Source of the DNA: an uncultured Pseudomonadota bacterium
Lineage (GTDB): Bacteria > Oederibacteriota > Muellerivitia > Muellerivitales > Muellerivitaceae
DNA length: 64,000 nt
Reading direction: 5' to 3'
NCBI GenBank assembly: GCA_963836235.1
Contig: CAWIIP010000001.1
Span: forward strand, 288,001-352,000
Shown: one piece after another, positions 2,984-44,832 of the stretch
How the letters are laid out: every line of letters starts with the position of its first letter
Numbering within the stretch: the stretch's first letter is position 1
Program-made: the position numbers and the translations under genes
Notes under the pieces: generated by a model
What the model saw: the letters and a program-made list of their open reading frames with translations, nothing else
The model's database searches: none
What the model was told of the DNA's origin: nothing

Positions 2984-3022
2984 TTATGATTGATTTTAAT
3001 CGAAGATTAAAATCAATCATAA
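2984..3022. repeat. Perfect 18-bp inverted repeat with GAA loop
   Basis: TTATGATTGATTTTAATC-GAA-GATTAAAATCAATCATAA, flanked by imperfectly complementary heptamer-like tracts. Confidence 0.9.
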
Positions 3023-19129: not shown

Positions 19130-19843
19130 CTCTGGGAACTTTAGCCTTGCTTAAGAAGAGGGAAGGAAAGAACCTCGAAACGTCCCCTGGAGCCAACTTG
19201 ACCTCTAGGGTTTAGGCTATGGCAAGGTTGGCGTCAATTTAAAGGCTCCTAGAGTTAAAGGCCTTTTATTCAGTCGTAATCTTCCCGAAAGTGACATCAA
19301 GTGTTACTTTAACTCTCTGAAAAAGACTTTATTTATCGAGCTTTTTTGTTGGGAAGAGAGTGATTTTGTTTAGTGGTGAATCCCCAAAGATGGGAAGTAA
19401 AAGTTTATCTTGGACGAACTCAGCTTAAACAAGATGGATCCCACTTATTTAGGGCTAAACAGGCTCATTTGAGCATTTTTCCTTATTTTGCGCCCTAATT
19501 TTATGAATGAAAAAGAAATCGTTCGGACCGAAAAAATCGATTTTTAGCAAAATCAGGGAACGTCTCAATGGTTATCCTCTTGAATTATCTTTCAAATAAA
19601 ACGGATTTAAATGCAAAAACAGGGAGTTTTAGCTGAATTTTTTTGCCAACCGAAAATTTCCTGACTTGAGAATGGAATGGAGTCTTTCTAAATGATTTTC
19701 ACGAAGGAAATACTCTGAAGAATGAAGACTTAAGCTGTTGGCGTTCGAAAAAAAGTATTTTAATCGATATGGAAAGCCAATTAATTGGTCCGAAAGAAGG
19801 GCAACCCGGTTGACCTTCCCCCAATATTCGATCCAAATTTAAG

Positions 19844-20690
19844 TTAGTTAAGGCCCAACTTTTCCATCTTTGCTTCCATCGGCGTCTTGCCGCCTAGGCT
19901 GCTGTGCGGCCTCTGCCAGTTATAAACCTGCCTCCACCAATCCACGACCACCTGAGCCTCCGCTTTCGACAGGAAAACTCTCCTGGTTCAGGCATTCATC
20001 CCTGAACTTTCCGTTGAAGCTTTCGATGAATCCGTTCTGCCAAGGACTCCCCGGCTCGATATATAACACCTGCACACCCTTTTCCTCAAGCCAGTTCCTC
20101 AGCTCCCAGGCCACGAACTCCGGTCCGTTATCCACCCGCATGTATTTCGGCGTCCCATGCTCCGTCATCAGCTCATCCAGCGTCTCCAGCACGTCTCGGC
20201 TTCTCAAGCGTTTCTCCGCCCGGATCTCCAGGCATTCCCGGCATCCCTCGTCCAAGACAGTCAGAAACTTCACCTTCCCGCCGAACCAGGTCAGGTCATG
20301 CACAAAGTCCATGGTCCACACTTCGTTTGAGCCCAAAGCCGGGTGAGGCCTTTTCCACTCTCTTGGAACCCGTTTCTTCCTGGGCCTCCTGCGAGGTAAT
20401 TGAAGCCCTGCTTCGTTGTACAGCCTCTCCACCTTCTTGTGGTTCACACCGAATCCCTGGCGTTCCAACATCCACAACATCCGCGGGCTTCCGAATCGTC
20501 GATTCCTTTGCGCTAACTTAACCATTTCCTCCCGGATCACCTGGTTCAGTGGGTCTTCCGGTCTAACCTCGTATCGAAAGCTCGACCGACTCACACCCAA
20601 AACCTTACAGGCTCGTCTTTCCGGCACTTCCTGAGCCTTCAAGGCTTCCACCATGCCTTTTTGTTCCTCGGTCAGTACCCCTTTTTTTTT
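19844..20690 (-). pseudogene. IS3 OrfB DDE transposase with a 1-bp frameshift near the 3' end
   Basis: WTMDF, VDNGPEF and FIESFNG intact. After CLNQE the canonical tail (VFLSKAEAQVVVDWWRQVYNWQRPHSSLGGKTP) continues in another frame to a stop at 19844. Confidence 0.8.
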
Positions 20691-24925: not shown

Positions 24926-26575
24926 TTGAGAAATTGGATAAATCAAATTTTCATATGTGGAATTCTGCTTTGTTTAGCGGGGTTGAATCCCACTTTTTCC
25001 GCAGGTTTAGAGGAAAAGGCTGGCGATTCGGCGTGGGGAAGTAAAGATTTAAGCTTGAATGACACCCCTCTCGTCAAAGTCCTCTACGCCACCGACCGGG
25101 CTCCCTCGACGAGTCCTGATCTTTTCTTCAATCAGCCCTCGAAGGGCCAAACAATGAGTTACGGCGAAACGGAAGTCGCTTTGGATCTGGCTTACCGGCG
25201 CAATAAGAATAAAGACGCCCGATGGCTTCGTTTCTTGCTACAAGGAAAGACAATTAATACTTTTTTGGGGTCGGAGGAATTCAAGGGCCGGTTGGGGCGG
25301 GCCCGGAACCTTTCGAAGGACCGGACCTTTATTTTCGTTCATGGGTTCAATACCACCTTCCGGGACGGGGCTCTTTTCGCGGCTCAGATCGCCTATGACC
25401 TACAATTGGAAGAGACGCCCATTCTTTACAGCTGGCCTTCAGCCGCCTCGGTTTTTGCCTATAACCAGGACCATGAAATGGTTCAAGAGAACCCCCAAAC
25501 CCGGGCGAACCTGGTGGAGTTCTTGAAAAACATCGCCGCCCATCCGCCCGCCAAGGAAATCAACCTGGTCGCCCACAGCATGGGTTGTTACCTTTTATCG
25601 TTGGCCCTGGAAGATATCGTGAGGGACCCCCAATATGGGGCTGAATTTGTCAAAAAAATCCATTCGATCACGCTGATTTCCGCCGATATCTGCACGGTGG
25701 AATTCACCCGGGACGACGGGCAAAGTTCGGCAGGGAAGAAGGCCGCCGTGGAGGGCATCTATGACCGGTTAAAACCCTTTTTCAGGGACAAGATCACCAT
25801 TTACGCCTCGGCCAAGGATTGGGTGTTGGATTTTTCCGCCGCCGATGAGTCAATCAACCATAAATGCCCACGGTTGGGGCAGGCGGGCAAAAACCTGGTG
25901 GTATTGGACGGCATGACCACCATCGACGCGACTCAAGTAGCGTCCAACATGGATGAATTGGATTTGGGGCATAACCTGCCCAGCCACGACGGGGTCATCG
26001 ACGACCTTTACCTGACCCTGAACCAAGATTTAAAACCCGCCCAAAGGCTTCTGACCTGGCGGCAAAAGGACGGCCTGCCTTATTACGAAATTTTTGACGG
26101 GGTCCATAATCTGGAAAAAGTGGACGACTATAATTGGATTACTTTCGGAATGTCGGCCCAACTAGGGGTGGTGACCTACGATTTCACCAATCAATTCAAA
26201 TTGGACGCGACCTTTCTGGGTCGCTTTCAACTGGAAATTGGTACGGCCAAGGGCATACTGCCCTCCTTGGCCGACTTCCGACTGAACCTGGGGACCGAAA
26301 GATGGCGACCCTTTTTGAATTTTGGGGTCGAATATTTCGGGGCGGGAAGCGGCGCCGACGCGGTGACCTCCGGAGATCTGCGTGCGGGTTTGGGGTTGGA
26401 GATCATGACCGATACGGGCTGGGGCTTTGCCCTGGGTGAAAGCTGGACCTGCTGGAACTTGGGCTGGAGGGGGAATATCCAAAGCCAACCCACCATTGAT
26501 ACCTTAATTCACCAGACTTTCCCGAACGGGGAGCTTTATTTCCAACTCAGCAAGTATTTCGCCGTTCATATTTAA
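24926..26575 (+). CDS. Secreted alpha/beta hydrolase (DUF900-like) with C-terminal beta-barrel-like domain
   Basis: VLYATDR, FVHGFN, YSWPS, AHSMG nucleophile elbow, RLGQ. C-terminal amphipathic strands. Confidence 0.8.
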   Translation: MRNWINQIFICGILLCLAGLNPTFSAGLEEKAGDSAWGSKDLSLNDTPLVKVLYATDRAPSTSPDLFFNQPSKGQTMSYGETEVALDLAYRRNKNKDARWLRFLLQGKTINTFLGSEEFKGRLGRARNLSKDRTFIFVHGFNTTFRDGALFAAQIAYDLQLEETPILYSWPSAASVFAYNQDHEMVQENPQTRANLVEFLKNIAAHPPAKEINLVAHSMGCYLLSLALEDIVRDPQYGAEFVKKIHSITLISADICTVEFTRDDGQSSAGKKAAVEGIYDRLKPFFRDKITIYASAKDWVLDFSAADESINHKCPRLGQAGKNLVVLDGMTTIDATQVASNMDELDLGHNLPSHDGVIDDLYLTLNQDLKPAQRLLTWRQKDGLPYYEIFDGVHNLEKVDDYNWITFGMSAQLGVVTYDFTNQFKLDATFLGRFQLEIGTAKGILPSLADFRLNLGTERWRPFLNFGVEYFGAGSGADAVTSGDLRAGLGLEIMTDTGWGFALGESWTCWNLGWRGNIQSQPTIDTLIHQTFPNGELYFQLSKYFAVHI

Positions 26576-26593
26576 TAAAACTAATCAGGTTTA

Positions 26594-27253
26594 ATGGATC
26601 GAGTCCTAGGGTATAGTTTAAAAATGATCCACCGCCGCATCCTCATGCTTCATAAACCCAAAGGGTATGAAGTCACTCGTCCGAAAACCCTTGCGATTGA
26701 AGCCTATCCCGGGCAGAAAACCGTCTACGCGCTTCTTTCGCCGGAATTCCACGAAGAACGCTGGATGCCGGTGGGACGGTTGGACAAGGACTCGACAGGT
26801 CTTTTGCTATTCGTAAAGGAAGGTTTTCTCGTTTCGGGCCTGCAAAAACCCCACAATGTTGATAAGGTCTACGAGGTTTTGACTTGGGGCCTGGTACGGC
26901 CCGAACACCTGGAAAAGATGCTATCCGGCGTAGAAAATGCCATTGGACTACTCAAGGCGAAGACGGTTGAGATTTTGGACGAATCGGGACATCAAACAAA
27001 AGTGAGGGTCGTGTTGGGGGAAGGGAAGAACCGGCACATCCGCCGGATGTTCGCCGGATTGAGGGATTTCACGACCAATCGGCCAATAAAAGTGTTGGAG
27101 TTGAAACGCATTCAAATGGGTCCTTTAAACCTGGACGTTGAACCCGGAACATGGCGGTTCTTGACCGAGGCGGAAACAGAAGTTCTTTTGAAATGCATCC
27201 CACCCAAAAAACGATCGGCATCTATTCTTTTGGGTGATAAGGTTCTACCGTAA
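26594..27253 (+). CDS. Pseudouridine synthase (RsuA/RluB/RluE family)
   Basis: HKPKG, PVGRLDKDSTGLLL, EGKNRHIRRM motifs. Confidence 0.92.
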   Translation: MDRVLGYSLKMIHRRILMLHKPKGYEVTRPKTLAIEAYPGQKTVYALLSPEFHEERWMPVGRLDKDSTGLLLFVKEGFLVSGLQKPHNVDKVYEVLTWGLVRPEHLEKMLSGVENAIGLLKAKTVEILDESGHQTKVRVVLGEGKNRHIRRMFAGLRDFTTNRPIKVLELKRIQMGPLNLDVEPGTWRFLTEAETEVLLKCIPPKKRSASILLGDKVLP

Positions 27254-27327
27254 ATCATCCGCTGGAGGGTTGGGCGGAATTTAAACGAATGATTTTGAAG
27301 AAAGGAAAGAGGCTCGTGGTAAAACCT

Positions 27328-38513: not shown

Positions 38514-39212
38514 ATGGCGACTTTTTCAGGAAATTTTCATCCCCACGCGGGAGAAAAGTCGGTTGCTGAAAAGGGCTTGGCTTGGGCCAAAGCCCATCAA
38601 GAAATTGTCGCGGTTTCAGTAATTGTCCTTTTATTGTTGGGAATCGGGATTCCGTACTTCCTTCATAGCCAGGATCAAAACGAAAAAGATGCCCAGGGCG
38701 TTTTAAGTCTTGGACAATATTATCTTCATGCCCAAGTTGACCCCCAAAAAGGGCCTTTTAAAAGTGTTGTTGAAAGAAATCAAAACGCCCTACAAACTTT
38801 TCAAAGAATTTTAACCGATTATTCGGGGACAAAGACCACCAGAATAGCCCGCTATTATGTAGCGAAATGCCAATATGACTTGGGGCAACTTCAACAAGCT
38901 TACGGTAGTTTTGACGCCGCAAGCCAGCAGTTGAAGGACAACCCATTGGGGGATGAGGCTTATTTTGGAAAGATTCTTTGTTTGGAAGCGCAAAACCAAT
39001 TGCCCCAGGCGGCCATTCTGGCCGAGAGTTTTTTAAAAGACCATCCGGATAGTTTTATTGTGGCGCAGCTCAGGTTGAATCTTTCGGATATTTACCTCAA
39101 AAGCAACGACAAAAACAAAGCCCTGGATCAATTGAAACTGGTGTCGAAGGGATTTTCGGATTCTGATTGGGGTAAAGAAGCCGATCGACGACTGAAAGAT
39201 ATCCAGTCCTAA
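38514..39212 (+). CDS. Membrane-anchored TPR protein (YfgM-like)
   Basis: One N-terminal TM followed by TPR helices. Confidence 0.75.
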   Translation: MATFSGNFHPHAGEKSVAEKGLAWAKAHQEIVAVSVIVLLLLGIGIPYFLHSQDQNEKDAQGVLSLGQYYLHAQVDPQKGPFKSVVERNQNALQTFQRILTDYSGTKTTRIARYYVAKCQYDLGQLQQAYGSFDAASQQLKDNPLGDEAYFGKILCLEAQNQLPQAAILAESFLKDHPDSFIVAQLRLNLSDIYLKSNDKNKALDQLKLVSKGFSDSDWGKEADRRLKDIQS

Positions 39213-40375
39213 AAGCCCTTTTCAGCTAGAAAACGGGCCATGCGACGGGCTCCCTCATGGAAAATTTCTGGTTGGGGTAAAAGGCTGAGCACCAGAAAAC
39301 ATCCACACTCAAAATCATAAAAGCCTCCCGGTTGGATGAAAACCCGCTCTTTTTCCAGCAATGAAATCACCAGATCCGCGTCTTCCACTCCTCCTGTCAT
39401 CACTTCGAGCAAGGCGTACCAACCGCCTTGGGCGGGCCAAACCCTAATGGCCGGTAAATCCTGAAGCAATTGTTCGAGATGGGCCCGGTTGGAAAGGACA
39501 CGCTCGGTCAGTTGTTTTTGGAATTCCGGGGCGAATGCAAAGAGTTCCTGAAGGGCAAGCTGGACCGGTGTTCCGACAGAGAGGTAGGTATCGGCGATGA
39601 GTTCCAGGCGTTCCCGGCATTCCGCCAATCGATCCCCGGGGCCGTCCAGTACCATCCAGGACAACTTCAGCTGGGGCAGGCCCAGGCTCTTGGAAAGCCC
39701 CCCCAGCCGGAAAGAAAGCACTCCTGCCGGCATGCTTTGGGAAACCTGCCGCCCAGGGTAGGCGAATTCCGCGAAGACCTCATCCGAAATGTAAGCTAAT
39801 TCCCGCTTCCGGCAAAATTCGTCGACCATCGCCTGGTCGGTGACGCTTAAAAAACAGCCCGTGGGGTTATTCGGATTAACCACAACCAATCCTTTCACGC
39901 GGCTTTCGAAGGCCCCCTCGAGGCTTTCCAAATCCACTGGCCAAAAGGGAGTTTTTTTGAGGGAATAGGGAAGGGCCTTCACGCCTTCCAGTTGAACCAG
40001 GTGGTCCAGAAGGGGATAACCCGGAGCGGGAACTAGGAAGGAATCCGCAGGATCGGCTAGGAGTTTGAAAAGGTAGGAATAGGCTTCGCTTGTACTGGCA
40101 GTAAGGATGATGTTCTCTTCTCTTACCAGCTGTCCATGAGATTTTAAGTACTTCGCCACCGCCTTGCGGCCTTCCGGATGACCGAAGGGATGGGATTCAT
40201 ATCTCAGGGCCGATGAGGATGCGAGTCCTTTTAGCAGGTCGGGGGGATAGTCGAACCCGCATTGGGTTGGATTAGACTGGGTCAGGTCCAAAAGGGTGCC
40301 GACGGGAATAGTTTCGAGGGTCTTTGAGATAGAATTCGGAGATAAGTCCTGTGGTGTCCGTCGTGAAAATCGCAT
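39209..40375 (-). CDS. PLP-dependent aminotransferase class I/II
   Basis: VNPNNPTG, SDEVF, GLSKSLG (PLP Lys). Confidence 0.92.
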   Translation of the reverse strand: MRFSRRTPQDLSPNSISKTLETIPVGTLLDLTQSNPTQCGFDYPPDLLKGLASSSALRYESHPFGHPEGRKAVAKYLKSHGQLVREENIILTASTSEAYSYLFKLLADPADSFLVPAPGYPLLDHLVQLEGVKALPYSLKKTPFWPVDLESLEGAFESRVKGLVVVNPNNPTGCFLSVTDQAMVDEFCRKRELAYISDEVFAEFAYPGRQVSQSMPAGVLSFRLGGLSKSLGLPQLKLSWMVLDGPGDRLAECRERLELIADTYLSVGTPVQLALQELFAFAPEFQKQLTERVLSNRAHLEQLLQDLPAIRVWPAQGGWYALLEVMTGGVEDADLVISLLEKERVFIQPGGFYDFECGCFLVLSLLPQPEIFHEGARRMARFLAEKGF

Positions 40376-40718
40376 AAAACCACCCTAAAGTAAAACTTTA
40401 ACCCGTCGTTATTTTACTGATTCTAAAGCTAATTCAACCTTTTACGAGCTAAGGACTCCGGCCATTTTGGAATTTTGGAGGCTTTCCTAATTGGCATTAA
40501 ACCCAAAGGTGGGGTTTGCCAGTAAAAGGCCAGAAAAGATTCCCTTTTGCCCATTGCTGTCTTTGAAATCCCAAAATGTATCGGGTTGAAACATTTCGTT
40601 CCAATCCCATTTTGACCGATTTTGAGTCTCAAGGCAAAAGGTATGAAGATTGGTGACCATTCATAATCGTTCAAAAAAACACTGTTTAAATGTAAAATTG
40701 GCATGTTTTGGTCTCTGT

Positions 40719-40739
40719 CAAAACGAAAGTTTCGTTTTG
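40719..40739. repeat. Perfect 10-1-10 palindrome downstream of the recombinase gene
   Basis: CAAAACGAAA-G-TTTCGTTTTG. Confidence 0.8.
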
Positions 40740-40833
40740 GTTTTTTTGAGACCGCGGGAAGCTTCCAATTAAATTTGATAAATAAAGACTTAATCTGGAT
40801 ATTGACGGTTCTTTTTGGCTTTTTTTGGTCCTT

Positions 40834-41895
40834 TCAGTCCTTTTCAGATTTTCCAGGCAGGCCCCTTCGGCCCATGGCTCGGAAGCGCTTGAGGACTGAC
40901 TCAATTCCAAAGAAGCCCCCCAAGTTCAAGGCTTGGACCTTGTCGCCATCTTCGAAGGCCTTGCGGTGAGCCTGGCGGCCCTTGGTGGATGCCAGCTTCA
41001 CGTAATTTTCGCTCACCATGATGCTGGAATGGCCCATCAGATCGCGGATCTCGTAAACGCTAGCGCCTGATTCGGCCAATTGGGTGCCAAAGGAGTGGCG
41101 CAGGACGTGAACCGTTAATTCCTCTGGATGTTCCAGTTTGGCCCATTGGGCGGCTTTCTTGACCCAGGTCTCCAAATAATCAGGGTGAATGGGTTTTTGT
41201 TCGCTACTGGGGCTTGGAAACAGGTATGGGCCAATTTTTTCGGCTCCGTTCAGGTATAGCTTCAAGAGCTCCTTGAGGGCTTCAGTCATGGGGACAATAC
41301 GTTCCTTGTCGCCTTTGCCGATGACCGTGACGAGGCCTTGGGTTAAGTCCAAATCACGGAGCCTCAAATGAGCGATTTCCGAAACTCTCAGCCCGCAGTG
41401 GTAGCCCAGCAGAATCGTCAAACTTATTCTTTGGGACTCTAAATCGCCTGTTTGAAGGTTTTTGACCAAGGTGGCTCGATCCGAAGGGGCTAAAGGACGG
41501 GGATTTCGCTGGGGACTGCGGATGGTCAAGTTGTGGAAGACGGCCGTAGGGTCGTTGGTGATGTGCTGAATGGAGGCCAAGTAACGGTAGAAAGACCGCG
41601 TGGTAGAGAGAATACGCTTCATGGAACGCGTCGAATAGCCCGATCTGGCTTTACCGCTGGGGGTTAATCCGGCCTTGGCCAAGGAACCGGCGAAACGAAC
41701 CATATGCTCGGGTTGGGCGGCAGCCGGACTTGATAGGTTCAAGCTGTCCAAGAATTGCTTGAGAACCCGGAGATCCTGCTGGTAATTTTCTTTGGTGTGG
41801 GGAGATTTGCAAAACCCCAAAAAGCCGTCATAGGGCTTTATTTCAAGCAGATTGGGCAGGATTTGTTTTCGATTTGGTTCGGGTCGTGGGGTCAT
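40834..41895 (-). CDS. Xer-type tyrosine recombinase
   Basis: N-terminal SAM-like domain (T.ENY..DL...F), catalytic R (GLRVSE), K (GKGDKER), HxxR (HVLRH), H (MGHS), Y (ENYV). Confidence 0.93.
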   Translation of the reverse strand: MTPRPEPNRKQILPNLLEIKPYDGFLGFCKSPHTKENYQQDLRVLKQFLDSLNLSSPAAAQPEHMVRFAGSLAKAGLTPSGKARSGYSTRSMKRILSTTRSFYRYLASIQHITNDPTAVFHNLTIRSPQRNPRPLAPSDRATLVKNLQTGDLESQRISLTILLGYHCGLRVSEIAHLRLRDLDLTQGLVTVIGKGDKERIVPMTEALKELLKLYLNGAEKIGPYLFPSPSSEQKPIHPDYLETWVKKAAQWAKLEHPEELTVHVLRHSFGTQLAESGASVYEIRDLMGHSSIMVSENYVKLASTKGRQAHRKAFEDGDKVQALNLGGFFGIESVLKRFRAMGRRGLPGKSEKD

Positions 41896-41897
41896 AA

Positions 41898-41925
41898 GTT
41901 CGGTATATCTGTAATTATACCGAAC
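41898..41925. other. dif-like 28-bp recombination site (11-6-11)
   Basis: GTTCGGTATAT-CTGTAA-TTATACCGAAC, arms 10/11 inverted-identical, 2 bp from the recombinase ATG. Confidence 0.7.
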
Positions 41926-41942
41926 CGATAAATCGGTGGCAA
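41914..41942 (-). promoter_or_regulatory. Sigma70 promoter of the recombinase gene overlapping the dif-like site
   Basis: On the minus strand TTGCCA (41942-41937), 17 bp, TATAAT (41919-41914). Confidence 0.7.
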
Positions 41943-42033
41943 TTATTTTTTAGAGTTTAATTTCATCCAACTGGACTAGGTGCCGTTAACGTGGCGCTTC
42001 AACCGCTTGCCAACTTTTGTCCTGCCGCTCGGG

Positions 42034-42888
42034 TCAAAATGTCATTTGAAAAGACTCCCTGTGGTCCTGCGCCCATTCCCGGAACCTGTGCGGCGGTAAT
42101 CCGGTGACCTCCTCGACGGTGGGCGTGATCAGGACCGGCGTCCCAACCAAGGCGGGCCAAGCCGCCAAAAGCATGTCGACAACAGGGGCCGGCCACTTTT
42201 GGAACAATTCCACCCTGGCGACCGAGGGCGTCACCTCTTCAAAGCGCAAAGGGCGGCCGAGTACCTCTCCAATCACGCGGACTTGGTCCAGATGGCTCAG
42301 GGATTCAGGGCCCGTTAGGACATATTTGGCATGGTTGTGGCCCTCGTCCAGGAGCGCATGGACTGCCACGGCCGCGATATCCCTCTCGTGAATCGGCGCC
42401 GTCCGGGCGGCACCATAAGGCCAGCGCACAAGGTTCCCGGATCGGATCTGCGGCGCCCACCAAAGTCTGGCATTATTCATGAAGACGCCCGCCCGCAAGA
42501 AGGTCCAGCCGGATGGCCCCAAGGTGATCAGGCGTTCAATCTCAAAATGGATGGTCGACTCCCGATTGTTGTATACATCCACGCCGTCTCGGATGGTCAT
42601 ATTCGATAGAAATACGATTCTTTCAACCCGCCCGGCCAACTTTTCCAGGATCCGGGAAGCCGCGGTCAGCGGCGCGCACCAAATTAAAAAAACCGCGTCG
42701 ATCTCCCCCACGTCATCCAGACATTCCGGGTCCGTTAAATCCCCGTGCAAGAGTTCGACCTGCTTTGGAAGGCCAGGGGCTTCAGTTCTTCGCGTGAGAG
42801 CCTTCACGCGAACCCCCTTTTCCAACAGCTGGCGCACGACCTGGCCTTCGACATTACCCGTGGCTCCGATGACCAGAACAGGTTTCAC
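42034..42888 (-). CDS. NmrA-like NAD(P)H-binding protein
   Basis: VLVIGATGNV, WTFLR, PIHERDIAAVA, LTGPE. AGGAGG RBS. Confidence 0.88.
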   Translation of the reverse strand: MKPVLVIGATGNVEGQVVRQLLEKGVRVKALTRRTEAPGLPKQVELLHGDLTDPECLDDVGEIDAVFLIWCAPLTAASRILEKLAGRVERIVFLSNMTIRDGVDVYNNRESTIHFEIERLITLGPSGWTFLRAGVFMNNARLWWAPQIRSGNLVRWPYGAARTAPIHERDIAAVAVHALLDEGHNHAKYVLTGPESLSHLDQVRVIGEVLGRPLRFEEVTPSVARVELFQKWPAPVVDMLLAAWPALVGTPVLITPTVEEVTGLPPHRFREWAQDHRESFQMTF

Positions 42889-43027
42889 GATGATTCCTCC
42901 TAGGCTCTAAAAAGGCAAACGGGATGTAATTGAAACATCCTTTTGGCCGATTTTGAATTTAATGACGGTTTATTTTGACGATTGTCCGGTAGAAGGGCAG
43001 AGGGAGATACCCAACCGGTCCGTCTTT

Positions 43028-43810
43028 TTAGGCCGGCTCGGAGAGGAACCCATCTAGGATTTTCTGGAATCCGGCCGGGTCTTCCAACGGAACCAAGTGG
43101 CCAACGCCTTCCAGGAGCCGAAGGTTGCTTCCGGGTATGGTCTTGGCCATGGTTTCGGCTTCCGTTGAAGGGATCAAGGCGTCCTCAAGGCCGGCCACCA
43201 CCCAGGTTTTGACCTTTAAGCCCGCCATCAGCCCCGTTTGGTCCCGGCGGTCGGCCATGGTGCGCTGGGCCAAGGCCACGGCGGCCGGGTCGGTCTTTTG
43301 AATCCAGTCCGTCAACCGCTTCGCGGCCAGGGGTTTCTTGGTCAAAGTGGACTTGCCCAAGAGGCCAGGAATCATGGCCTCAGCGAGGAATCCAACACCT
43401 TCTTTTTCAACGCGGTCGGCCATTTTAAGGCGGTTCTGCCGGGCTTCCGGCTTGTCCAATCCGGGCCTGGTGGAAACGAATAACACCTTATCCACCTGAT
43501 GCGGAAATTGGCGGATGAATTCCATGGCCCAGTAACCGCCCATCGAGATGCCGCCGAGAATAACGGGTTCATGAATTCCCTTTTGAATTAAATGATTTTC
43601 GAGGCCCTGAGCGGCTTCGACCAGTGATAATCCTGCCGGTGCCAAAGGTGAATTACCAAAACCGGGGAAATCAGGCAGGATTAATTGAAATCCCGGCGGA
43701 GGCGTCAGATACATCCAAAGTTGGTTCGAAAGCGGAAAGGCGTGCAAAAGAACAACGGGTTTACCAAAGCCCAACTGATAAGACTCAAGTTGCGGGACGC
43801 TCATAAGCAC
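43028..43810 (-). CDS. Alpha/beta hydrolase
   Basis: LLHAFP, PDFPGFG, GISMGG, ED, GH catalytic motifs. Confidence 0.92.
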   Translation of the reverse strand: MLMSVPQLESYQLGFGKPVVLLHAFPLSNQLWMYLTPPPGFQLILPDFPGFGNSPLAPAGLSLVEAAQGLENHLIQKGIHEPVILGGISMGGYWAMEFIRQFPHQVDKVLFVSTRPGLDKPEARQNRLKMADRVEKEGVGFLAEAMIPGLLGKSTLTKKPLAAKRLTDWIQKTDPAAVALAQRTMADRRDQTGLMAGLKVKTWVVAGLEDALIPSTEAETMAKTIPGSNLRLLEGVGHLVPLEDPAGFQKILDGFLSEPA

Positions 43811-43857
43811 CTCGTTAAATTGAACTTAATGGGTAGATGCCAAAGCTTTGCTTTAGG

Positions 43858-44832
43858 TTACGGAGCTAATTCTTTTAAATGAAAAACGGGTGTTTTGGGC
43901 TTCCGTCCACTTAGCGCCAAATGAATGTTTTCTGCGGCCAAAAGGGCCATTTGATCCCGGGTTTCCGTCGTGCCGCTCCCCAAATGGGGCAGGAGGGTGC
44001 AGTTGACGAGGCCTAGGAGCGAAGGATCAATCTTGGGTTCGAATTCATAAACGTCCAAACCGGCGGAATGGATAGTTCCCTTTTCAAGGGCCTGAGCCAA
44101 GGCCTTTTCATCGTGAATGGGCCCCCGGGCCGTATTGATGAAGATAGCCGTTTTTTTCATTTTGCGAAATTCTTTTGAGGTGAAACGGTGGCGGGTCTTG
44201 GGCGTTAAGGGGGCATTGACACTCAAAAAATCAGAACACTCTAGAAGGATTTCGAAAGGCACATACTTGGCGTTCAACCGCCGTTCCAAAGACGCGGGAA
44301 CCCGGTGCCGTTGGTGGTAAAGGATTTTCATGTCCCATCCCCTTCCCCGGCGGGCGACGGCCTGGCCGATGCGCCCAAAGCCATAGAGGCCAAGCGTTTT
44401 GCCAGACAAATCCAGCCCCAACAGCATCAAGGAATGCCAACCCTTAAATTTTCTAGCCCGGACCAGCCTTTCGCCTTCGGGGATTCGTCTAGCGCAAGCC
44501 AAAAGAAGCGCCCACACGATGTCAGCAGTGGCTTCCGTCAGGACTTCTGGAGTGTTGGTGACCCAGATACCACGGTCCTTGGCGGTTTCAATATCAATGT
44601 TGTTATAACCAACGGCGTAATTGGCCACGCATTTCAATTGGGGGGCGCCTTGAAAAACCTTCCGAGAAATGGGGTCGGCTAGGGTGGTTAATAAGGCTTG
44701 GAAGGGTTTTACTTGGATGATCAGTTGAGATTCGGTCAGTTGTTTTCGATTCCAAGTGACTTGGTAATACCTAGACAGGTATTCAAAAGCCACCACTGGA
44801 ATTTGATTGGTAATCAGAACCCGTTTTTTCAA
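43858..44832 (-). CDS. D-2-hydroxyacid dehydrogenase (glyoxylate/hydroxypyruvate reductase-like)
   Basis: AVGYNNID, GFGRIG, INTARG, GLDVYEFEP, PHLGS. Confidence 0.93.
   Translation of the reverse strand: MKKRVLITNQIPVVAFEYLSRYYQVTWNRKQLTESQLIIQVKPFQALLTTLADPISRKVFQGAPQLKCVANYAVGYNNIDIETAKDRGIWVTNTPEVLTEATADIVWALLLACARRIPEGERLVRARKFKGWHSLMLLGLDLSGKTLGLYGFGRIGQAVARRGRGWDMKILYHQRHRVPASLERRLNAKYVPFEILLECSDFLSVNAPLTPKTRHRFTSKEFRKMKKTAIFINTARGPIHDEKALAQALEKGTIHSAGLDVYEFEPKIDPSLLGLVNCTLLPHLGSGTTETRDQMALLAAENIHLALSGRKPKTPVFHLKELAP

Follow-up and report, generated by a model that had tools for sequence, protein, structure and literature searches.

A 64,000-nt stretch of the genome of an uncultured bacterium (assembly GCA_963836235.1, contig CAWIIP010000001.1, positions 288,001–352,000 of the forward strand; hereafter the window, to whose numbering plain coordinates refer) carries the gene for a divergent Xer-type tyrosine recombinase, xer, and a 28-bp dif-like site just ahead of its start codon. 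By predicted function, gene and site very probably constitute a single-enzyme chromosome-dimer resolution system of an order-level FCPU426 clade. The module is best regarded as a phylogenetically separate single-enzyme Xer/dif pair with the site in the gene's promoter, of a kind already known from XerS, XerH, XerA and XerL. An earlier note on this DNA had proposed a new single-recombinase Xer/dif system; the one-enzyme module is supported in silico, every computational check suggested in that note having turned out in its favour, and its novelty is confined to the lineage.

The source genome (G000; GTDB lineage Oederibacteriota; Muellerivitia; Muellerivitales; Muellerivitaceae) is assembled to 3.97 Mb at 99.4% completeness, and the window lies on its contig C1. 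Records of about 28 species share the gene, the site and the neighbouring genes, and most of these are titled candidate division FCPU426. Literature searches on single-recombinase Xer/dif systems and on FCPU426, the latter sampled by titles and abstract openings, yielded nothing on Xer in this lineage.

A single dif-like site precedes xer

The site occupies positions 41898–41925, with a gene-proximal arm (41898–41908), a centre (41909–41914) and a distal arm (41915–41925). It reads GTTCGGTATAT-CTGTAA-TTATACCGAAC in window orientation or, along the xer strand, GTTCGGTATAA-TTACAG-ATATACCGAAC followed by TT and the ATG. Each feature that the earlier note had ascribed to it was verified: the 2-bp distance from the start codon, the 11-6-11 layout, arms symmetric at 10 of 11 positions, a non-palindromic centre and TTAT at the inner boundary. 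The exact sequence occurs once in the genome. There are 188 28-mers with arms symmetric at 10 or more of 11 positions around a 6-bp gap, and the ATAA/ATAT..TTAT/ATAT inner border is found only in the site. One looser match, with 2+2 mismatches, lies at C4:161858, where about 0.7 would be expected by chance according to our own estimate. No second half-site or decayed copy was found within 40301–43900 at up to two mismatches.

The earlier note had left to be checked whether the site is conserved upstream of orthologues and copied elsewhere in the genome. It is present upstream of every orthologue with upstream DNA in three sets of loci (23/23, 25/25 and 26/26), the loci without it being those cut by a contig end, and it is single-copy per genome. 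The orthologous sites share the consensus NNNNNN-TATAA / YTNNAR / TTATA-NNNNNN. The core pattern TATAAYTDYARTTATA matches at one place in 22 of the 31 family genomes and never at two; in the nine others the core is variant (one arm of the source genome's own site contains ATATA) or the assembly is broken. Positions 2 and 5 of the centre are invariant (T and A), and its 12 variants all fit YTNNAR. None of these variants is a palindrome and several are one substitution away from one, an absence that is not significant at 12 variants (p about 0.2 by our estimate).

The centre does not keep one orientation relative to the gene: between identical arms, either TTACAG or CTGTAA may stand. Such reversal between relatives, together with the inverted repeats that flank the gene (described below), would be in keeping with a recombinase that inverts a stretch of DNA, as an invertase or in phase variation. 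We give this explanation only the faintest probability, for each genome holds one recombinase site and hence no partner for inversion, the flanking repeats are unlike the site, and the central variants are linked by single substitutions under the symmetric YTNNAR constraint.

A near-perfect type-A copy, AATCGGTATAA-TTGTAA-TTATACCGAAT, was found at positions 3001–3022 of a 4343-nt viral contig (L173), the sole match among the viral contigs scanned. It lies inside the maturation-protein gene of what is an RNA phage contig, and because the contig encodes an RNA replicase beta subunit (152.9 bits), we read the match as a presumed RNA hairpin that resembles the site by chance, not as an attachment site.

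The module lies at the replication terminus

Coding strands converge at 39209–39212, between a TPR gene on the plus strand and an aminotransferase gene on the minus strand. This point coincides with the replichore polarity switch, is syntenic in relatives and lies 2.7 kb from the site, which is thus as close to the strand switch as the earlier note had described. Strand-skewed octamers trained on contigs C2, C4 and C5 and then mapped on C1 flip there once, at C1:327,257 (window position 39,257, the cumulative maximum), 2.6 kb from the site at C1:329,898. The same words flip at C1:828,776 in genome G003 (site at 831,028, 2.3 kb away) and at C3:363,345 in genome G012 (site at 369,919, 6.6 kb away), both within 400-kb stretches centred on the site, which test where the flip falls inside them and not its genome-wide position.

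When training was confined to the C1 sequence on either side of the site, the cumulative curve of the resulting words was lowest at C2:1,466,627, next to a dnaA match at C2:1,460,186. The flip on C1 and this minimum together place the terminus on C1 and the origin on C2. An origin near 0.8 Mb on C2, obtained with a first training split, was superseded by the dnaA-based position of 1.47 Mb, and the C1 flip was reproduced with independently trained words. In all three genomes tested, the site lies at the replichore junction.

A divergent recombinase is the only Xer candidate of the genome

The xer gene (40834–41895, minus strand) encodes a protein of 353 aa, which the earlier note had described as an intact tyrosine recombinase with the residues R-K-H-R-H-Y. 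The reading frame is indeed intact, and the protein matches the Pfam domains Phage_integrase (PF00589; 108.9 bits, cut-off 27.1) and, N-terminally, the SAM-like Phage_int_SAM_1 (47.2 bits). The catalytic residues R170, K194, H263, R266, H289 and Y298 are invariant across 17 orthologues, the assignment of K194 depending on the alignment to XerD. These residues and a two-domain fold place the protein in the tyrosine recombinase superfamily, and its AlphaFold model (mean predicted local distance difference test score, pLDDT, 79.7) matches XerA, XerD, XerH, Cre and lambda Int.

Against the curated equivalog models of NCBIfam, the protein stays below every cut-off, scoring 168.9 bits for XerC (TIGR02224, cut-off 335.15), 154.6 for XerD (TIGR02225, 329.6), 141.9 for XerA (NF040815, 220) and 81.6 for XerS (NF003462, 267), the last over its C-terminal half only. 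Among solved structures, those of XerA come out first both by sequence (4a8e, E 5.5e-27) and by fold (5hxy, E 1.2e-12). A phmmer comparison with the XerH chain in the PDB aligns residues 158–300 only (35.7 bits, E 5.7e-8), far more weakly than XerA or XerD, and so does not indicate a close relationship to XerH.

The genome encodes eight tyrosine recombinases. On the XerD model the seven besides xer score 30–75 bits, and none of the eight reaches the cut-off. The seven are integrase-like, comprising six close paralogues of about 370 aa and one protein of 430 aa, which leaves xer as the sole Xer candidate, the lone Xer of the earlier note. The six paralogues have integrase-like N-termini (MS[RK]PNVHGLP...) and are scattered through the genome, at C2:508534-509658, C5:272292-273410, C4:244730-245848, C2:1373833-1374942, C2:1185603-1186715 and C4:195984-197144, which suggests that a single type of integrative element is present six times.

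Most other families of the phylum have canonical XerC and XerD. Of 99 genomes from across the phylum, 54 encode a XerD above the curated cut-off, as a rule accompanied by another, XerC-like match at 295–331 bits; none of the 54 belongs to this family (0 of 31 genomes) or to the sister family (0 of 1). The earlier note had asked for a search for xerC, xerD and a canonical dif; no canonical XerC or XerD was found in these 32 genomes, the source genome included, and the source genome has no other dif-like site. A single Xer-type recombinase is what these searches leave.

The gene is near-universal in the family; the earlier note had named a sporadic distribution among relatives, with a canonical XerCD/dif elsewhere at the true terminus, as refuting its proposal. 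Of 30 family genomes, 28 yielded the divergent xer, and the remaining two assemblies are 63% and 65% complete. Orthologues with 54–82% identity are present in 23 of 24 same-family genomes (the miss is 63% complete) and in one sister-family genome of the same order. They span 28 species representatives, below which the next-best matches fall to about 31% identity, and are also found on 32 metagenome contigs. Gene order is conserved on both sides, the sister family included: c3, 2-hydroxyacid dehydrogenase, alpha/beta hydrolase, [site] xer, aminotransferase, and the convergent TPR and apt genes. This conserved order indicates that the module is a vertically inherited chromosomal fixture, and the protein tree of xer mostly follows genera.

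In a quick maximum-likelihood tree of 36 rows, which answers the earlier note's call for a phylogeny, the FCPU426-type Xer proteins form one clade (SH-like approximate likelihood ratio test, SH-aLRT, 97) on a long stem. This clade falls outside a group (SH-aLRT 94) that contains the XerD/XerC-like proteins of the phylum, a third, "single" type from families f3 and f14, sporadic gene pairs, and E. coli XerC and XerD. The placement outside the XerC/XerD group is tentative because long branches meet at the root, as the program itself warned.

Two further kinds of XerD-like gene were encountered in the phylum. Adjacent XerD-like pairs (220–265 bits) occur in some family genomes (G005:C26:7831-9751; G018:C97:110465-112271; G015:C1:15399-17281 and 25408-27290); they are probably parts of mobile elements, as they are sporadic and, in G015, duplicated. 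Families f3, f9 and f14 mostly have one longer XerD-like gene (330–363 aa, 270–286 bits) instead of a XerC/XerD pair. These genes (G026:C9:3094-3966, G039:C114:3734-4600, G068:C162:13381-14256 and G069:C49:9896-10801; L164–L168) form a clade of their own and may represent a second single-recombinase lineage in the phylum. Among sequencing runs listed as containing sampled words are three of soil DNA, all from one study, with shares of 0.08–0.26; no RNA run is listed.

Site arms co-vary with the start of a predicted recombinase helix

The outer arms of the site vary between genera yet remain palindromic. Four classes recur at arm positions 4–6 (CGG/TGG, TTC, TCA and TAG), and one lineage has changed the inner arm on both sides, to GGGATAA...TTATCCC. 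Xer orthologues that are 65–80% identical have arms differing at two to three positions. Of 246 variable columns in the protein alignment, that of residue 239 best tracks the arm class (adjusted mutual information 0.815, next 0.607), and residue 240 ranks third. In the 42 sites with symmetric arm positions 5–6, a simple rule fits 41: GG is paired with D239 (19/19), TC with H239 (9/10), CA with R239 (4/4) and AG with N237 (9/9). This rule was drawn up from genome loci, and all 21 non-duplicate new metagenome loci also obeyed it.

On a tree of 47 rows, the arm class changes at least nine times and residue 239 at least eight times, seven of the latter coinciding with a change of arm class. As many coincident changes are found elsewhere only in hypervariable columns (at least 20 changes) or at the N-domain residues 36, 17 and 80. 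The TCA/R239 pairing appears at two places on well-supported branches and at three on the best tree. In five sites the two arms are unlike, namely in L012 (G009), L021 (G007), L022/L199 and L042. L012, for example, combines a TTC arm and a CGG arm with D239, and elsewhere TTC and TAG stand together with N237. Such sites may be intermediates of a specificity switch.

The codons of the co-varying residues 237–240 (H-P-D-Y; 41176–41187, minus strand) lie at the start of a helix predicted at 238–251 in the AlphaFold model. In a HMMER alignment T243 corresponds to XerD H225, and residues 237–240 stand just before it. Residues 237–240 thus stand one turn upstream on the helix that is expected to read the outer arm; the corresponding helix of Cre carries R259 and E262. 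In XerH, the part of the structural report that concerns the arms describes a contact of K290, on helix alphaK, with T4 of the outer difH arm, and gives XerC K222 and XerD H225 as its counterparts (PMC5241119).

The site overlaps the xer promoter

A sigma-70-type promoter, TTGCCA-17-TATAAT, lies at 41914–41942 on the minus strand and matches the consensus at 11 of 12 positions. Its -10 hexamer (41919–41914) consists of the inner half of the distal arm and the first central base. In most orthologous loci, TTGACA-like hexamers, read by eye, stand 16–18 nt before TATAAT or TATAAC. The start codon follows type-A sites after 0–2 nt and the other types after 12–14 nt that include a GGAG-like motif. 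Of the earlier note's reading of the site, the dif-like element beside the gene is retained; it has to be amended in that the site doubles as the xer promoter and its centre has no conserved orientation. Since the -10 box and the start site would be covered by bound Xer, the overlap suggests that xer is autoregulated.

The same overlap raises the question of whether the palindrome is an operator and promoter only, bound by the protein or by another dimeric regulator to control xer, with dimers being resolved in another way or at a site elsewhere. The near-consensus promoter, with the conserved inner TATAA as its -10 box, fits an operator well, and dyad symmetry with co-varying arms would also be expected of a homodimeric repressor and its operator. 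Nevertheless, we regard a pure operator as unlikely. None of the six catalytic residues varies, the layout matches that of dif sites, being exactly 11-6-11 with ATAA/TTAT borders, and the site is at the terminus in each of the three genomes. In addition, no other Xer candidate or dif-like site was found in the genome, the lineage appears to have lost XerCD, and the invariant central positions 2 and 5 are not needed by a simple operator.

A proposed mechanism and its difficulties

The reading that we prefer is a dimer-resolution system in which one Xer-type recombinase would act as a homotetramer on two sister copies of the 28-bp site at the terminus, each 11-bp arm binding one monomer. Residues 237–240, at the start of helix 238–251, would read arm positions 4–6, and cleavage would occur at the borders of the non-palindromic 6-bp centre, the overlap region. 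Bound Xer would repress its own promoter, the -10 box and likely transcription start being inside the site. The genome has a single FtsK gene, with alpha, motor and gamma domains (gamma 98.3 bits), and this FtsK would probably bring the sites together and may activate the reaction.

Several observations weigh against this proposal. With arms this close to perfect symmetry, the asymmetry by which XerH and XerCD order strand exchange is gone, so that the reaction would have to be controlled differently. The site lies two genes (2.3–6.6 kb) inside one replichore and not exactly at the switch. Conservation of the inner-arm TATAA could partly reflect the -10 box instead of recombinase contacts. Tests of co-variation that allow for shared descent are underpowered and not significant: a sign test on independent pairs (two to three, all in the same direction) gives p 0.5, and Fisher's test on sister-leaf pairs of the tree gives p 0.29. 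Finally, two scans of viral contigs with type-A and type-B sites found no mobile elements exploiting the site (IMEX).

A polar element brackets the module

The module is accompanied by a polar, AT-rich element of about 50 nt, AATCGTTnAAAAAAAC-N4-TTTAAATGCAAAATCG, which all 31 family genomes carry in one to three copies and which is essentially absent from the rest of the phylum. In the window, copy IR-R (40664–40713, plus strand; nhmmer E 3e-9) lies downstream of xer and points toward it, and a weaker copy, IR-L (42943–42983, minus strand; E 8e-4), lies upstream of the site and points toward the site. A third copy at 19585–19633 (plus strand) adjoins a gene for an IS3-type transposase (19920–20654, minus strand; rve, HTH_21). 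In most family genomes two copies bracket site and xer, inverted and both facing inward, at distances of about 0.1–1.3 kb; genus g3 and the sister family are without the bracket. Thirteen of the 14 distal copies point the same way as the local leading-strand word bias, and the genes next to distal copies are not conserved.

Right after the promoter-like part of IR-R, a strong terminator-like hairpin with a T run (40717–40751, plus strand) faces the 3′ end of xer. A 91-aa open reading frame (40429–40704) that overlaps IR-R was rejected as a gene, as it lacks a family match and the nucleotide-level conservation there belongs to the polar element. The element was also considered, and rejected, as a sigma-54 promoter, for which the spacing is wrong on reading the sequence, and as a Xer half-site, for which co-variation with the arms is missing. 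No known RNA family was detected within 39000–43000 at E values up to 1.

An NmrA-like gene (42034–42888, minus strand; GC 0.589) lies between IR-L and the site. In relatives, the same slot holds a gene of about 125 aa for a Cys-rich, HNH-endonuclease-like protein (L032:2482-2919, L035:2478-2941), and in L056 (upstream of 2938) the HNH-like gene is reduced to its first part, which runs straight into the site. These differing genes and the remnant beside the site indicate that the slot takes up and loses cargo.

A bracket of inverted ~50-nt repeats around gene and site, with variable cargo (an NmrA-like or HNH-like gene) inside it, could be the trace of a decayed integrated element, with xer as its integrase, the palindrome as its attachment site and the polar repeats as its ends. 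Modules of a site plus its gene were compared to integration modules in part of the report by Le Bourgeois 2007 (PMC1914069). We consider this origin highly improbable. The module keeps the same chromosomal place and both flanks in about 28 species, an outgroup family without the repeats among them, and is present in one copy per genome; moreover, the repeats are also found singly at other places, where they are oriented with replication, and the protein tree mostly follows genera. Other mobile genes are missing as well. The genome neighbours of xer are genes for an aminotransferase, an NmrA-like protein, an alpha/beta hydrolase and a 2-hydroxyacid dehydrogenase. The earlier note's observation that no phage, integron or transposon genes surround xer thus holds: the adjoining genes are ordinary metabolic ones, and the nearest transposase gene, the one at 19920–20654, is 21 kb away.

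The polar element could represent Ter-like sites, FtsK or SMC handling sites, or inward promoters. As the distal copies are oriented with replication, a minimal Ter-like trap or an FtsK/SMC site could be envisaged. It is conceivable, though doubtful, that the module forms a compact terminus-organising unit, in which a Ter-like fork trap, or a site where FtsK or SMC would stop or be loaded, would confine termination to dif, combined with a natural series of at least four recombinase/site pairs whose specificity switch would map to one or two residues and which would serve as a recognition code.

Comparison with known systems

The proposed dimer-resolution module would be one more instance, arisen independently, of a lone recombinase linked to its site taking the place of XerCD, in a little-known uncultured soil/peat lineage. 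Its natural series of arm/residue pairs (D, H or R at 239; N at 237) would, if true, be useful for the design of orthogonal recombinase/site pairs and for re-targeting. With arms so nearly symmetric, it has to be asked what sets the order of strand exchange in place of arm asymmetry, and the flanking polar element may point to a hitherto unrecognised terminus function.

The module shares with XerC/XerD-dif of E. coli and most bacteria the fold, the catalytic residues, the 11-6-11 layout, the ATAA/TTAT inner borders and the terminus position. In XerCD, however, two paralogous enzymes share an asymmetric site and their genes are not linked to dif, whereas the FCPU426 module has one enzyme and a symmetric, adjoining site.

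For the single-enzyme systems, the comparison draws on parts of the cited reports. XerH/difH of Helicobacter and Campylobacter likewise combines one recombinase with palindromic inner arms and a 6-bp centre (PMC3325230, PMC5241119). It depends on FtsK, and a catalytic-domain helix with K290 reads the outer arm (PMC3325230, PMC5241119), the counterpart of the co-varying helix in FCPU426 Xer. The FCPU426 arms are symmetric, unlike those of difH, and the sequence similarity to XerH is weak, as noted above. XerL/dif of the Legionellales is a divergent single Xer that was missed by homology searches, is order-wide and has a palindromic site, which lies at the GC-skew maximum (PMC9765430). In the sections of that report used here, the XerL site is not described as abutting the gene and was discovered via a mobile element that copies the site; XerL is compared with the FCPU426 module by description only (PMC9765430).

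Archaeal XerA/dif also pairs one recombinase with a 28-bp, 11-6-11 inverted-arm site, and xerA and dif form a module in some species (PMC5357621). XerA is archaeal and is reported there to be FtsK-independent (PMC5357621), whereas the FCPU426 genome has an FtsK with a gamma domain. In XerS/difSL of Streptococcus and Lactococcus, as in the FCPU426 module, one recombinase has its site immediately upstream, the module is at the terminus, and it replaces XerCD clade-wide (PMC1914069, PMC2965235). DifSL, in the portions of these reports considered, has 31 bp with an 11-bp centre and imperfect arms, in contrast to the 28 bp, 6-bp centre and near-perfect arms of the FCPU426 site. Le Bourgeois 2007 speculated that difSL belongs to the promoter of xerS, allowing autoregulation (PMC1914069), and the FCPU426 module, with its site in the xer promoter, suggests a similar arrangement.

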